Positions 39,576 through 52,095 of a stretch of 64,000 nt of DNA are shown piece after piece. The translations under genes were made by a program, and so were the position numbers. The stretch comes from a virus (lineage: Duplodnaviria; Caudoviricetes), in IMG/VR virus record IMGVR_UViG_3300020120_000082, positions 74,809 through 138,808 of that record. One strand, written 5' to 3'. Position 1 is the first letter of the stretch, and each line of letters starts with the position of its first letter. The notes beneath the pieces were generated by a model. That model was given only the letters and a program-made list of their open reading frames with translations. It was not told the origin of the DNA and did no database searches.

Positions 39576-39677
39576 GGGAGATCAGTATGCAGATGGCGTT
39601 GCGTGTTTACTCATCGCGGTTCGTTGCCGTCTGGCTGATCTCCCAAAGACGCCTTGGCAACGAACCGCGGCCTTTTT
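39576..39677 (+). promoter_or_regulatory. Terminator/antiterminator leader upstream of the ParB-MTase
   Basis: GGGAGATCAG/CTGATCTCCC competes with CGCGGTTCGTTGCC/GGCAACGAACCGCG + T5. Confidence 0.6.
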
Positions 39678-39692
39678 AACTTGGAGCACAAG

Positions 39693-40940
39693 ATGAAAAT
39701 AGCGGATATCAAAATCGGCAAGAGACATCGCAAGGATGCGGGTGATATTCAGGGATTGGCCGATAGTATCAAGACAATTGGTCTTTTGCATCCAATTGTG
39801 GTTGATATGAACAAAAACTTGATTGTTGGTTGGCGACGAATTGAAGCATATAAGCTGCTTGGAAAAGATGAAATACCGCATCGCGAAGTCAGAAACCTGA
39901 ACGAGTTGTTACCTCTTTTGACGGCAGAGCGCGATGAAAATGTCATGCGTAAAGACTTCAGCCGCAGCGAGGCTGTCGCCATGGGAGAATCGATTGAGAA
40001 GTTTATAGAGAAACCGGCAGCGGAGAAACGCGAGAAATCCGGAACTAATCAGTATACGGAGCCCTCCGGAAAATTGCCGGAGGGCTCTAAAGGTGACTCT
40101 CGGGATAAAGTTGGCGCTGCGGTTGGCATGAGTGGCAAGACTTACGAAAAGGCCAAGGCGGTTGTTAGTGCGGCCAAGGAAAACCCAAAGAAGTTCGAGA
40201 CGGTTCGCCAGGAGATGGACAAGACAGGCAATGTTGATAAAGCCTTCAAAATTGTCAAACGAATTGACGATACAGATAAGCTACCATTTGAGCCGCAAGC
40301 ATTCAACATTTGGAATTTCACCGATCGCAATCCCGCATTTGGAATTGAGTATCCTGGAAACATTCCTGGGGATATCATTCAAAATCTCTTGTGGCTGTAC
40401 ACCGAGAAGAAAGATCTGGTTGTTGATCCGTTTTCCGGTGGCGGTGTAACACATGATGTTTGCCAATGGTGGTCAAAGAAGATGTGGCCAGTGCGTTGCG
40501 TCAGCCTGGATGCCATTCCATCTCGGCCAGAAATAAAGCAGAACGATATCACGGATGGCTTTCCAGCAAGCGCCAGAAATGCCAAGCTTGTTTTTCTGGA
40601 TCCGCCATATTGGAAACAAAAGCGCGGAGATTACAAAGGCGGTGACAATCTGGCTGACATGCCACTGGATGAATTTCATCGCAAGCTAGTTGGCATTGTT
40701 GGCGCAAGCGCTGATATATTAGTCAGCGGCGGTTACGTTGCTCTGATCATTGGTGCAACACGCGATCAGAAGCGCTTTGATCACGCTGCTTACTTGATGA
40801 AACATGTTGAGATGAAACTGGTGGAAAGGATTATTGTTCCATATTCATCTCAGCAGGCCATGGGATATCACATCACTTCGGCTAAGAATGGCAAGCTTCT
40901 ATTGAATAGATATCGAGACTTGCTGGTATGGCAGAAGTAA
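39693..40940 (+). CDS. ParB-N domain fused to DNA amino-methyltransferase
   Basis: ParB-like LADSIKTIGLLHPIVV...GWRR..A...ENVMRKDF; MTase DPFSGGG and DPPY; GGAG SD before ATG 39693. Confidence 0.85.
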   Translation: MKIADIKIGKRHRKDAGDIQGLADSIKTIGLLHPIVVDMNKNLIVGWRRIEAYKLLGKDEIPHREVRNLNELLPLLTAERDENVMRKDFSRSEAVAMGESIEKFIEKPAAEKREKSGTNQYTEPSGKLPEGSKGDSRDKVGAAVGMSGKTYEKAKAVVSAAKENPKKFETVRQEMDKTGNVDKAFKIVKRIDDTDKLPFEPQAFNIWNFTDRNPAFGIEYPGNIPGDIIQNLLWLYTEKKDLVVDPFSGGGVTHDVCQWWSKKMWPVRCVSLDAIPSRPEIKQNDITDGFPASARNAKLVFLDPPYWKQKRGDYKGGDNLADMPLDEFHRKLVGIVGASADILVSGGYVALIIGATRDQKRFDHAAYLMKHVEMKLVERIIVPYSSQQAMGYHITSAKNGKLLLNRYRDLLVWQK

Positions 40941-48302: not shown

Positions 48303-48627
48303 TGGGAATTGCTTTCGATTGCGGGAATTACAGCCAGGCGATGGCGTGTGCGGAGATGAACGCGATGAATTTGTGCTGGCTGTCGGAAAGATCATCGAAC
48401 GTGCCGATGTCCAGCAGATGGCGGAGATTGAGGCTGAGAAACAGACGTGCTTGGCGCAGCAGGGATTGCATCTCCTGTTCGCAGGTAGGCGGCATCTCGA
48501 TTTCCATTTCGGTTTTCCTTTCTGGGAATAGTCGCCGGTTATGTTATGCAACCAGGCGGGAGTCTGTTGCTTAAATGCCAATAGGGAGGCGGATTCCGTC
48601 TCCCTGAATTGGCTTGCCCAGCGGGAA

Positions 48628-49143
48628 TTATTCCCGCCCGCTGCCGATGTTCTTTAGCAGTTCCTTATTGAATGCATCCGTGATTTCGGCAGTTACTTTG
48701 AGGTGGATCATCTCAACGCCACCGGTATTCGACTCGTGCTTGTGGCGAATTGGCGCATCCTTAGAATCGTCCAGAAATATATCCCGCCCGGTGATAAACG
48801 TCATAATCTCTTGGGCTTGTGCTTTCTGATTTTGCAGCAAAAGATTCCCTGCGCGGATTCCCTGGATTGACTCATGCGAGCGAGCGTCCAGTTTTACATG
48901 CCGGTCAATAAATCGGGCCATAGTCCTATAGCCCAATTGGCGCAGCTTGGGAATCAGAATATCCGCCTGTCGGCGGAATTCCTTTCGGATTTCTTTATCT
49001 GTCGTGATACGCCTCACTTGCTTTTCTGGCGTATCGCGATACCGAGTCACCGGGGCTTGATGCTTGGATTTTAGGGTGATACGCCTATCATCCATTGAAT
49101 TGCCTTTCATGCCGGGAATTCTAATTTCGTCGTCGAATTGCAT
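48628..49143 (-). CDS. Hypothetical basic early protein
   Basis: 171 aa, GGGAGG SD. Confidence 0.7.
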   Translation of the reverse strand: MQFDDEIRIPGMKGNSMDDRRITLKSKHQAPVTRYRDTPEKQVRRITTDKEIRKEFRRQADILIPKLRQLGYRTMARFIDRHVKLDARSHESIQGIRAGNLLLQNQKAQAQEIMTFITGRDIFLDDSKDAPIRHKHESNTGGVEMIHLKVTAEITDAFNKELLKNIGSGRE

Positions 49144-49169
49144 TTTTCGCCTCCCAATGATAAGCGGGG

Positions 49170-49210
49170 CTTAAAATAAAATGAGCCCCGCTTGCCTCAG
49201 CGGGGCTCAT
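49170..49210 (-). terminator. Intrinsic terminator
   Basis: 12-bp IR ATGAGCCCCGCT / AGCGGGGCTCAT with minus-strand T-rich tail. Confidence 0.7.
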
Positions 49211-49321
49211 TATGTGCGGTTCGCAGCGCGGTATTATGTGCGGGCTCAGCCCCGCTCAGGCTGAGCCCGATTCGGCTGAGCCTCAGCCCGTATCATGCGC
49301 GGGGCTCAGGCTCAGCCGAAC

Positions 49322-49377
49322 CTTAAACAAAATGAGCCCCGCTCAGCCCGTGTTATGCGGGGCTGAGCGGGGCTCAG
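49322..49377 (-). terminator. Intrinsic terminator after ORF 49398
   Basis: GAGCCCCGCTCAGCCC / GGGCTGAGCGGGGCTC with TTTTGTTT tail on the minus strand. Confidence 0.7.
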
Positions 49378-49397
49378 GGTATTACAGGCTCAGACTG

Positions 49398-50057
49398 TTA
49401 GACGTTCGCGGGCTCAGTCTCAGCCCCGACAGACTCAACCTGTGCGGGCTCAGTCTCAGCGGGCTTGCCACTATTGGCCCAAGCCTCAGCCTCTGGACTC
49501 AGCCCATAGCGGTTCGGCCCAGTATCGCGTGTAGTGAATTCAGCCTCAGCCGAACCGAACCGCGCAACGAACCGCAACCCGCCAATTTCGCCATTGAGGG
49601 CATATGCCCATTTTTCACCCTCAATGGCCCGCTGAAAATTACCGCTCTTGGCGGTATTTTCCGGGATTCGCCATTGATTCGGCCCGTACCTCAGGCTCAG
49701 GGTGACGGTATAGTCTGAGCCCAAAAGGGACGCCTCAGCCTCAGACAAGCTCAGAGTCTCAGCCTTTCCTCGGCTCAGGGTGAAAACCTCAGCCGAACGG
49801 CGTGCCTTGTTTTTCGGGGCCATGAAGCGAACCGAACCGCGAGTCTTGAGACCGGTCTCAGCGGGCCATTTGAGCCCCGCCCCGAACGACAAGAGCCCCG
49901 AACCATCGCGCATATCATCCCGGCCCGTAAACGTCAAGGTTTTTACAACCTTGATGCTAGGGCTCTTGAGGGTGACGAGAACCTCAAGGGGTTGACTATT
50001 GCTCAGGGTGACGGGCTTTTCATCCTTTCCCAACAAAACGAAAACATTTGTGGCCAT
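49398..50057 (-). CDS. Hypothetical protein, first gene of the leftward block, embedded in the motif-rich zone
   Basis: 219 aa from ATG 50057 with GGAAAGG SD; followed by a terminator; motifs read as Ala-Glu / Leu-Ser. Confidence 0.7.
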   Translation of the reverse strand: MATNVFVLLGKDEKPVTLSNSQPLEVLVTLKSPSIKVVKTLTFTGRDDMRDGSGLLSFGAGLKWPAETGLKTRGSVRFMAPKNKARRSAEVFTLSRGKAETLSLSEAEASLLGSDYTVTLSLRYGPNQWRIPENTAKSGNFQRAIEGEKWAYALNGEIGGLRFVARFGSAEAEFTTRDTGPNRYGLSPEAEAWANSGKPAETEPAQVESVGAETEPANV

Positions 50058-51171
50058 GCTAGAACCTTTCCGGGCCATATGGCCCTATAAGAACGGGGCT
50101 CAGCCCCGTTCGGCTTGTCCCCCTCAGGCTGAGCCCGAACCGTATAACCGGGCTCAGGCTCAGCCTGAGAACGACAAGCAAGCAAGAGAGTCAACCTATA
50201 CCGCCCCGCTCAGGGTGACGGTACCGCACTACGGCATATTCTCAGCCGAATTTTTCGGGCCAAAAAACGCGGTAAATAATGGCCCTAGTCTTTGCAAGGG
50301 GGAGGTGTAATAACCTCAGGCTCTTGTCAGGCTCAGCCCCAAGAGCGGGCCGAACCTGCGCGGGCCGTTATGCCCCATTCGCCTAGAACGTATCTAGGCG
50401 ATTCGCCATTTTGAGAAGAGCCCCAAAAACTGACTCAACCCTCAGGCTATGCAATAGGTTGTTTTTACCCTCAGCCGAACAAGCCTGAGGGGGATAGTGC
50501 GGGCTTGTCAGAGCCCGGCTGAGCTGTTCGGTTATGGGCCAATAGCCCCGCAAAAAACGCCTAAACGCGGCAACACGGCCCGAACCGCCACTAACACGGT
50601 TCAAGGGTTGCAACGTGCCTAAGCTGAGCGAGAGATAAGCGAACGACATAGCCCGCATTATGCGCGAGGGCTCAGAACCGTTCTAACTTTGTAACATTCT
50701 ACGGTTATAACTAAGTTTGAGAGACTGGAAAATAGGCACTATCCGTAAACTTTTGACGCGTGATTGTAACGTTCATTACTAGACATAAGTGTACGGTTAT
50801 ACGCATTAAGCGGGCCATTTTGGAAAAACGCGGGGCGTGGCTCAGCCTGAGCGGGGCTTATACTACACTTGTTATAATAGCGTACACTTGTCAATATACC
50901 GCATAGGCGGGGCTCAGCGGGCCGTTATGGGGCGGGGCTGAGCCTGAGCCCATAGCCCGCCATTAACACGCATGGCGGTACCTCAGCGGGGCTCAGCGGG
51001 CTATTCTAGGGGCGGTTCTAAGGGGTGAAAATGAGCGGATTAGTCCCCCCCTCTTGTTAGCCGACGGAGTCGACATAACGCGGCCTGGGGCCGTGGTAGT
51101 CCCTAAAACAACTTGAGCCTCAAAATTCCCACGTTACATATTCTCCAGCATTTCGCCTGTAAAATAAGCGC

Positions 51172-51795
51172 ATGCGCATTCTGGATCTATTTTGTGGTGC
51201 TGGTGGCTCGGCCTGGGGATTACATCTGGGATTTCCGCTGGCAATAATCGTTGGCGTCGACAAATTCGAGCAGCCGCATTACCCATTCGAGTTTCACCAG
51301 GCGAATGCGATCGATTTTGACCTAAGTGGGTATGATTTCATCTGGTGTTCCCCACCCTGCCAGGCGTATTCACCATTGAAGAGCTTGGCCAGGAAAGATC
51401 ATCTGGCGCTGATCGACGTTATGCGGAGCAGGCTGGAAAAGCAGACGACTCCGTATTGCATTGAGAGCGTCTCGGGAGATCCGCTGCATTACCCGGTGGT
51501 TTTGTGCGGGATGATGTTTGGGCTGGGGACGTACCGGCACCGCTACTTCGAGACCAGCTTCAAAGTAGAACGCTTGAGCCATCCGGGGCATAAGCGACCG
51601 ACTCAGGTGCTGGGAAAGCCGCTCAAACCAGACGAGATGATGACCATCGTCGGTCACTTTTCCGGTGCCGCCCAAGCTCGCAAGGCTATGGGAATTGAGC
51701 ATTTCATGCCCCAATCCGCTCTTTCCCAGGCCATCCCCCCAGCCTATTCGAAGTACATCGCGGGCTTTATTCCAGTCAAAACCAATTCCAACTGA
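51172..51795 (+). CDS. DNA cytosine-5 methyltransferase (short phage type)
   Basis: LDLFCGAGG motif I, SPPCQ catalytic motif, C-terminal QAIPP. Confidence 0.85.
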   Translation: MRILDLFCGAGGSAWGLHLGFPLAIIVGVDKFEQPHYPFEFHQANAIDFDLSGYDFIWCSPPCQAYSPLKSLARKDHLALIDVMRSRLEKQTTPYCIESVSGDPLHYPVVLCGMMFGLGTYRHRYFETSFKVERLSHPGHKRPTQVLGKPLKPDEMMTIVGHFSGAAQARKAMGIEHFMPQSALSQAIPPAYSKYIAGFIPVKTNSN

Positions 51796-51838
51796 GACGG
51801 TTTTCCAAAAAATTATGAGGTGTTTCAAATTAGAACGT

Positions 51839-51888
51839 TGTCACAATTGACATCGCTGTTATTCTCGATTACACTGTCATTCGTGACA
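51839..51888 (+). promoter_or_regulatory. Promoter TTGACA-N17-TACACT with two TGTCA-N4-TGACA operators
   Basis: -35 at 51847-51852, -10 at 51870-51875; palindromes at 51839-51852 and 51875-51888. Confidence 0.7.
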
Positions 51889-52095
51889 ACAGTAAAGCGC
51901 AAGTTAGTAATAAAGCTGGTTGATCAAACCAAGAAAGCGGGTGTATCGTTCAGGCAGATTGAGCGAGACACCGGCATTGGCTTGTCGAACCTGAGCCGGA
52001 TCAGCCGTGGAAAGCAGCGACCCAGCTTTGAGACGATCCAGGCGCTCTGCAACTACTTCGAATGCACCCCCGGCGATCTACTGAAGATGGAATGA
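51883..52095 (+). CDS. XRE/Cro-family HTH transcriptional regulator
   Basis: SFRQIERDTGIGLSNLSRISRG...FETIQALCNYFECTPGDLL; likely leaderless GTG start. Confidence 0.85.
   Translation: MTTVKRKLVIKLVDQTKKAGVSFRQIERDTGIGLSNLSRISRGKQRPSFETIQALCNYFECTPGDLLKME

Follow-up and report, generated by a model that had tools for sequence, protein, structure and literature searches.

A word-dense zone at the switch of gene orientation in a soil phage, and relatives that keep its layout with other words

The DNA analysed here, called the window, is a 64-kb stretch (64,000 nucleotides) that forms the terminal part of one 138,808-bp IMG/VR virus record, IMGVR_UViG_3300020120_000082. At positions 49150-51050 of the window lies a zone that is written in a restricted vocabulary. 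The word CTSAG (CTCAG or CTGAG) occurs there 53 times, and a real gene, P0004, is overprinted with it. In related phages, the syntenic zones agree in their bounded position, in their architecture and in a very high density of self-complementary short words, and the words themselves are replaced from lineage to lineage, as judged from sequence comparison. We believe that the arms of the zone may be a cis-acting platform that is read by its density by a lineage-specific factor and controls early transcription and/or replication start. The probability of this reading is put at about one in three.

Word content and edges of the zone

The plus strand of the zone carries 41 CTCAG and 12 CTGAG, spanning 49196-50992. 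The expectation from the remainder of the 138.8-kb genome is 2.56 sites, which corresponds to an approximately 20-fold enrichment (Poisson p ~1e-49). Every other 1-kb bin has at most 6 CTSAG, and the zone is the only one of its kind in the genome. For a local null, the zone was shuffled 200 times with its dinucleotide composition preserved. The commonest 5-mer of any kind then reached at most 26 copies (mean 15.9), and the enrichment survives this null as well. Neighbouring sites stand exactly 6 bp apart in 12 doublets. The other spacing is irregular, and adjacent spacings range from 6 to 170 bp.

Several further words are co-enriched. CCGAAC/GTTCGG was found 14 times (0.8 expected), GGGGC/GCCCC 27 times (2.4 expected) and CGGGC/GCCCG 26 times (2.5 expected); GGGCC and GTCACCCT also belong to this vocabulary. 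The word GGGGCTCA has 9 copies in the zone and 0 in the remaining genome, and GGCTSAGCC has 10 copies within the zone and 1 outside. Six word classes together cover 35% of the zone, compared with 3.6 +/- 1.1% elsewhere. Its 819 distinct 6-mers are the lowest number among all 1.9-kb windows (1116 +/- 43). The nearest CTSAG beyond the edges are at 48434 and 51602. The flanks of the word are S-rich, with the consensus SS-CTCAG-SC.

The initial annotation, made by a model from the letters alone, had reported about 50 CTCAG/CTGAG by hand count, in both orientations and irregularly spaced, with recurrent CCGAAC and abrupt edges, and had proposed a specialised cis-acting domain. The counts agree with this description, and they support such a domain over chance or ordinary coding sequence. 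Of the 53 sites, however, only 21 extend to the palindrome GCTSAGC or longer, which corrects the description of longer forms as the usual ones. The core is therefore a 5-mer with S-rich flanks. The words are short (5-12 nt), stand in many contexts and are not long recent duplicates, which fits a reader of short sites.

An assembly chimera had been named as the finding that would undo the claim. Logan contigs of four soil runs from four studies match the window at ≥99% and span the edges on the left (49101-49334) and on the right (51037-51283). Since these independent contigs bridge both edges, a chimera is ruled out. Tandem Repeats Finder detected a single 19-bp array and nothing else, and Rfam gave no match with E values of 1 or less. 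The literature, searched for the word, yielded primer sequences only. When viral contigs were scanned with the pattern GGCTCAGNCTCAGCC, only single chance matches appeared, and the densest loci were coding repeats of the AQPQ/PEPE type.

The longest genome-wide gaps of GATC, CCWGG and TCGA all fall in the zone. Restriction avoidance was considered for this purge and rejected, because many non-palindromic 4-mers (CCAG, TCCA, ACCA, AGAT, CTTC) are just as depleted. The purge is thus read as part of the restricted vocabulary, a general shift of composition in which CTAG, TATA and TTAA are enriched. Outside the zone, GATC reaches 8.1 per kb and CCWGG 6 per kb, about 2-3 times the expected density. 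The most under-represented 5-mer genome-wide is GAATC/GATTC (185 observed, 377 expected, z -13.7), a deficit that hints at GANTC-directed restriction or a CcrM-type host.

The gene inside the array and relatives with other words

P0004 occupies 49398-50057 on the minus strand and encodes 219 aa from its second Met; the open reading frame (ORF) reaches 50078. The protein is predicted to be all-beta with an acidic tail. Its homologue P0005 on the contig L122 is 73% identical (dN/dS 0.27, dS 0.86), and a remote homologue, P0007, is 31% identical. These alignments indicate that P0004 is a real protein-coding gene under purifying selection that carries the DNA word. This conserved gene was missed by the initial annotation, as was the fact that extreme self-complementarity is a property common across lineages. 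The zone had also been placed exactly at the divergence of transcription. Its location there stands, and "exactly" does not, because the zone holds a real minus-strand gene and the divergence point is at about 50.06-51.17 kb.

P0004 carries 18 CTSAG, of which 17 read CTGAG on the coding strand (17:1). The L122 copy also has 18 in its coding region, and positions are shared at only 9. Over the whole alignment of the window with L122, 18 of 38 sites are kept as CTSAG, compared with a background of 26.5% for other 5-mers; three of the retained sites are C/G flips of the centre base. Where the word makes P0004 read AE or LS, P0007 has other residues. The sites gained within the gene show clustered multi-base changes. 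As the number of words is kept and their positions turn over, either selection acts on density or conversion continually re-creates the words.

The comparison with L122 also bears on a selfish or neutral origin, by which palindromic modules like repetitive extragenic palindromic (REP) sequences or miniature inverted-repeat transposable elements (MITEs) would have accumulated where an intergenic region tolerates them and entered the neighbouring gene by conversion, without serving the phage. An imperfect palindrome of words at 50113-50179 (67 nt, inverted pair I5) is missing from L122 and is therefore a whole-module indel. Of the 11 non-coding sites found only in the window, 6 lie within indels. 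The sequence families differ between lineages, much as those of bacterial REPs differ between species. However, the words are confined to one zone, to which GGCTSAGCC is nearly restricted, and a layout with the same bounds is found in at least three lineages, where it always ends at the methyltransferase gene described below. The balance of 18 against 18 sites within a gene under purifying selection and the site retention above background speak against accumulation too. We regard this explanation as very doubtful.

Protein-based locus searches with P0004, the P0004 alignment, the 171-aa neighbour of the zone and the helicase gave no relative in viral, metagenome and species-genome collections. 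Close DNA relatives were absent among 50,697 phage records. The L numbers denote contigs of relatives. The closest members of the methyltransferase family (60-67% identity) are on Logan contigs whose local synteny is the same. A set of 71 viral loci with the compact methyltransferase is not syntenic, and none of these loci has homologues of P0004, P0008 or P0011 or a comparable word array.

Two of these contigs, L209 and L208, hold the complete divergent intergenic region. Both show the first leftward gene, a GC-rich arm, an AT-rich core with TTGTAACAT repeats, a short arm, a C6-C8 run with a conserved block, and the methyltransferase gene. Their intergenic regions contain 0 CTSAG. In L209, a 1.55-kb stretch holds 25 CGGCCA/TGGCCG. 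Of these, 13 fall in the intergenic part of 1020 bp (null maximum 7), 6 within the 237-aa leftward gene and 6 just past that gene, and the methyltransferase gene has none. The word of L208 is GGTCAA/TTGACC, with 16 copies, 14 of them within 1060 bp (null maximum 6); here too the methyltransferase gene is free of the word, and the co-words are CCTCCC, CGCCAG and CAACCG. A search for equivalent zones with other motifs in related phages had been suggested at the outset, and these two answer it. The enrichments in L123 (CGGCCC), L136 and L210 (ACATAA) were borderline against shuffles and were not counted as arrays.

The change of words between lineages could also mean that the array consists of short signals set by the host. 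These would be Chi-like sites against RecBCD/AddAB near an exposed end, or an island of targets for a methyltransferase or a Type IIG/III enzyme; CTCAG is the BseMII/BspCNI site. The word is an asymmetric, GC-rich 5-8-mer with a bias of orientation (77% in the window, 64% in L209, 69% in L208). It follows no spacing rule, can be overprinted on coding sequence and matters by density, not position, and a C5 methyltransferase gene adjoins the zone. Several results count against such signals. Outside the zone CTCAG is barely avoided (184 observed, 213 expected, z -2.5, rank 124 of 1024 5-mers), and for this reason it is unlikely as a restriction target; the earlier idea of a restriction or modification target array is weakened accordingly. 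The methyltransferase is unlikely to read the words, because it is 60-67% conserved across lineages in which they differ. The strong self-complementarity and the several co-enriched words are left unexplained. Two scans of 185,579 species genomes found no prophage relative. Host signals of this type seem improbable to us.

Arms, core and neighbouring genes

The left arm, with its GC-rich, hairpin-forming words, runs through P0004 and two terminator-like hairpins. One hairpin is at 49180-49211 (minus strand; 13-bp stem, 6-nt loop, followed by TTTTATTTTAAG) and is kept in L132 with an altered loop. The other, at 49333-49376 (minus strand; 17-bp stem, followed by TTTTGTTTAAGG), is built of words and stands just past the P0004 stop codon; its stem is identical in L122. 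Both have T-rich tails on the minus strand. Upstream of P0004, a non-coding leader of 620 nt (50058-50680) is dense in hairpins and contains islands conserved in relatives. It includes a perfect hairpin at 50091-50111, GAACGGGGC-TCA-GCCCCGTTC, with a CTCAG-centred 9-bp stem and a 3-nt loop, whose core is kept in L122. These three hairpins had been named from the letters, and all three are real. The leader also contains the element CGGCTGAGAAWATGCSGTAGT (50228-50248, minus strand), common to the window, L122 and the remote relative L123. A pattern scan with the conserved element GCTGAGAAWATGCSGTAGT gave 0 matches in viral contigs and 8 chance matches in metagenome contigs. A 91-codon ORF at 50383-50658 (minus strand) overlies the best-conserved non-coding island. 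Its frame is lost twice and regained in L122, so it is the DNA or RNA that is conserved, not a protein. As this ORF has no homologues and loses its frame in L122, it was rejected as a gene, and so was the ORF at 49212-49718 (plus strand), which has no homologues.

These hairpins carry the main rival, namely that RNA or single-strand structure is all that matters. A forest of hairpins would structure the leader, coding region and 3' end of the first early transcript and insulate the two divergent operons, serving stability, RNase processing, termination or attenuation, and the words would have no reader. They would be lineage-specific as stems evolve in concert via duplication and short-patch conversion. 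All arrays fold much more strongly than their shuffles: z is -8.3 for the leader, -10 for the 3' segment after the gene, -6.4 for the P0004 coding region, -9.5 for L209 and -9.2 for L208, compared with -3.5 for a neighbouring gene. The zone has 10 perfect hairpins where 1.8 are expected. The two terminator-like hairpins with T-runs, the gain and loss of whole palindromic modules as indels, and the clustered changes at gained sites fit this explanation as well. On the other hand, perfect hairpins of ≥7 bp hold just 11 of the 53 CTSAG. Stems need both orientations equally, whereas the observed ratio is 41:12, and 17:1 in the gene. The missing Rfam match also counts against it. We consider structure alone a possible explanation, somewhat on the unlikely side.

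The AT-rich core (50680-50900) is almost free of CTSAG; its GC content is 37% at 50700-50799 compared with 57% for the arms. It contains the repeats TTGTAACRT (50689 and 50764), TACGGTTATA (50700 and 50792) and ACACTTGT (50865 and 50884), and an extended -10 element, TGTTATAAT, on the plus strand at 50870-50878. Core repeats of the TTGTAACAT type are conserved in L136, L208 and L209. The core is promoter-like and may act as a promoter; a scan with the sigma-70 consensus found no more sites than in shuffles. The right arm (50832-51000) has 7 CTSAG (4 CTCAG, 3 CTGAG), and its inverted word blocks flank TGTTATAAT (pairs I8, I15 and I17). An element, GGGCCGTTATG/CATAACGGCCC, was found on either side of the core, at 50362-50372 and 50919-50929, and is also present in L122, L123 and L209. 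It may be an ancestral site, because the array words of L123 (ACGGCCC) and L209 (ACGGCCA) resemble it.

To the right of the array, a C7 run (51045-51051, plus strand) opens the conserved block ATTGTAGGATTATG ... GGTAGTCC (51095-51102), which separates the array from the methyltransferase gene. A C6-C8 run with this block is found at the equivalent place in L134 (1-60), L135 (58-120), L136 (428-490), L208 (1172-1230) and L209 (1728-1790). The 62-kb contig behind L134 terminates exactly at the C-run; a physical end, a cos-like site and a plain assembly break are all conceivable.

This contig end fits another explanation, that the zone abuts the virion DNA end and is a first-injected, injection-stop or packaging-recognition region like the T5 injection stop signal (iss). 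The zone resembles T5 iss in its size and its mass of repeats and palindromes (10.1101/866236), and early-looking small genes begin at it. However, the zone is internal, 13 kb from the contig end, and both edges are bridged by independent contigs. The record is linear, and no terminal repeat was found in it. The zone has no DnaA boxes, unlike T5 iss, and no terminase gene was recognised within 11 kb. The assembly may simply have broken at a variable or repetitive boundary to give this lone contig end. In our opinion, a genome-end element is unlikely.

The first rightward gene (51172-51795, plus strand) encodes a compact C5 cytosine methyltransferase of 207 aa with the motifs FCGAGG, PPCQ and QAIPP. 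It keeps motifs I, IV and X and has almost no target-recognition domain. Its family has >7,900 members of ~205 aa, and no record of their sequence specificity was found. In L134, genes for an HNH endonuclease and an endonuclease VII (396-914 and 1607-2038) are inserted to the left and right of the methyltransferase gene, and a second helix-turn-helix (HTH) gene lies upstream. The second rightward gene of the window (51820-52095, plus strand) encodes a Cro/CI-type HTH protein. Directly downstream of the zone on the left is an early gene of 171 aa with no family assigned (48628-49143, minus strand), which has a GGGAGG ribosome-binding site. Its homologue P0009 on L132 is 68% identical, and the 132 bp upstream of P0009 are written in the same CTSAG words.

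The leftward gene block starts at about 50 kb of the window and spans roughly 80 kb, and the rightward block runs from 51.2 kb into the structural genes. The cumulative GC skew has its minimum at 50-51 kb, where gene orientation switches. A ParB-like nuclease-domain protein of 428 aa (39654-40940, plus strand) is the sole clear plus-strand gene in the leftward block and coincides with a local reversal of the GC skew. A tyrosine integrase is encoded at G000:C1:49058-49996, outside the window (Pfam E 6e-28), at the convergent junction of the rightward structural and leftward blocks. This integrase, which lies at the distal end of the leftward block, makes the phage look temperate. Most phage proteins have no PHROG or Pfam match. 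The completeness of the record is 88% by the CheckV estimate. Soil metagenomes from several studies contain near-identical fragments of the phage at low depth. It is a novel soil phage of ~139 kb or more, with a probably temperate lifestyle.

Reading of the zone and comparison with known systems

In this study, we believe that the zone would be an early control region in which a conserved, promoter-like, AT-rich core lies between GC-rich arms. Taken together, the words of the arms give a dense forest of hairpins and palindromes. The arms would be read by density, not exact position, and would offer a lineage-specific factor numerous weak sites or hairpins. Among candidates for this reader the fast-evolving P0004, encoded within the array, is the best, by analogy with lambda ori inside gene O and pac inside terS. 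Such a platform would establish divergent early transcription and/or start replication at the AT-rich core. Support for a platform read by density comes from the 20-fold enrichment that is unique in the genome, and from the word count, which is kept while positions turn over. It also comes from the imposition of the word on a protein with a dN/dS of 0.27, at places where the remote homologue has other residues, and from the syntenic zones that keep the layout with other words. A control or origin role is supported by the position of the zone at the orientation switch and the cumulative GC skew minimum, beside an AT-rich segment.

Some results weigh against this reading. L135, a relative of the GGTCAA lineage, has an identical recognition region in its HTH protein, so the neighbouring HTH protein is unlikely to read the words. 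For P0004, no family or fold was assigned from PHROG/Pfam, a PDB sequence search or the ESM Atlas, and its structure model has low confidence (pLDDT 45.5). The spacing, irregular save for the 6-bp doublets, is unlike that of iterons or known operator arrays. No DnaA, IHF, CtrA or alpha-type LexA boxes were found in the zone, and no TTATCCACA-like DnaA site with ≤1 mismatch was found within 48900-51300. The genome has no ParA (AAA_31), and the 20 flanking ORFs include no ribbon-helix-helix (RHH) protein. Strong folding (z -8 to -10) is common to the lineages, and structure with concerted evolution alone could explain this common property. The clustered changes at gained sites also fit short-patch gene conversion, not selection.

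A bolder version of the density-read platform is a fast-evolving address code. Each lineage would stamp its early control or origin region, including the first gene, with its own word, and a co-evolving reader or a host end-processing nuclease, as with Chi, would recognise it. The array would then be a determinant of self-identity or incompatibility, deciding whose genome is expressed, replicated or spared. To our knowledge, an element of this kind has not been described for tailed phages, and we hold it as a speculation with rather low odds. If a lineage-specific factor does read the arms, the zone would be a compact natural case of rapid co-evolution of short words and their reader at a phage control or origin region. 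In its course, a protein-coding gene would have been rewritten so that it bears the word. The programme of large uncultured soil phages would then become open to tests, from the sites where early transcription and replication begin to what decides the compatibility of related phages. The structure-only reading would be useful as well, as a hairpin forest of ~2 kb across a gene would then be kept as architecture while its sequence is replaced.

The T5 iss region is not translated. It is part of the terminal repeat and contains 8 DnaA boxes with repeats and palindromes; it acts in cis by a mechanism that is unresolved (10.1101/866236). The sequence and order of its repeats are conserved among T5-like phages (10.1101/866236). 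The present zone is of similar size and also rich in repeats and palindromes. It differs in holding a gene, in having no DnaA boxes and no known terminal repeat, and in that its words change between lineages and its layout stays.

Iterons are 17-22 bp long, present in 4-10 copies and helically phased, as in lambda ori within gene O and in plasmid Rep-iteron origins. Their initiator gene, with a Rep/O/DnaA-type fold, overlaps or adjoins them, and DnaA boxes of the host are frequent. Like an iteron origin, the zone has repeated sites that adjoin an AT-rich segment and are in part overprinted on a gene. The sequence of its sites is lineage-specific, and it is located at the switch of GC skew and gene orientation. 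Its words, however, are 5-9 bp long, number about 50 and are irregularly spaced. P0004 lies in the array; it has no family match, its low-confidence model gives no recognisable initiator fold, and no DnaA box was found with up to 1 mismatch.

The box arrays of RHH proteins, such as the omega heptads of pSM19035 and the ACTC boxes of TP228 parH, consist of 4-7-bp boxes in both orientations that serve as operators and centromeres and are read cooperatively by density. Their boxes are contiguous and of fixed phasing and stand beside ParA and RHH genes. The zone shares the many short boxes in both orientations. It is regular only in its 6-bp doublets, and the ParA and RHH genes are missing from the places searched.

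REP sequences and bacterial interspersed mosaic elements (BIMEs) are species-specific, GC-rich imperfect palindromes in clusters that affect mRNA stability and termination. They are dispersed over hundreds of intergenic sites and avoid genes. The clustered, GC-rich, lineage-specific imperfect palindromes of the zone are similar to them, whereas its words, such as GGGGCTCA, stay in one bounded region and run through a gene. Chi-like sites are asymmetric words with strong co-orientation, enriched and skewed in the chromosome of the host. The word of the zone has an orientation of 41:12, and the scans of species genomes gave no prophage relative.

Thus, each of the closest analogues (T5 iss, iteron origins, RHH arrays and REP/BIME) shares some features with the zone and fails at least one defining feature that was tested. 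We therefore class the zone among the repeat-rich cis-acting control or origin regions. It is new among them in two respects: its vocabulary is replaced from one lineage to the next, and a gene is overprinted.

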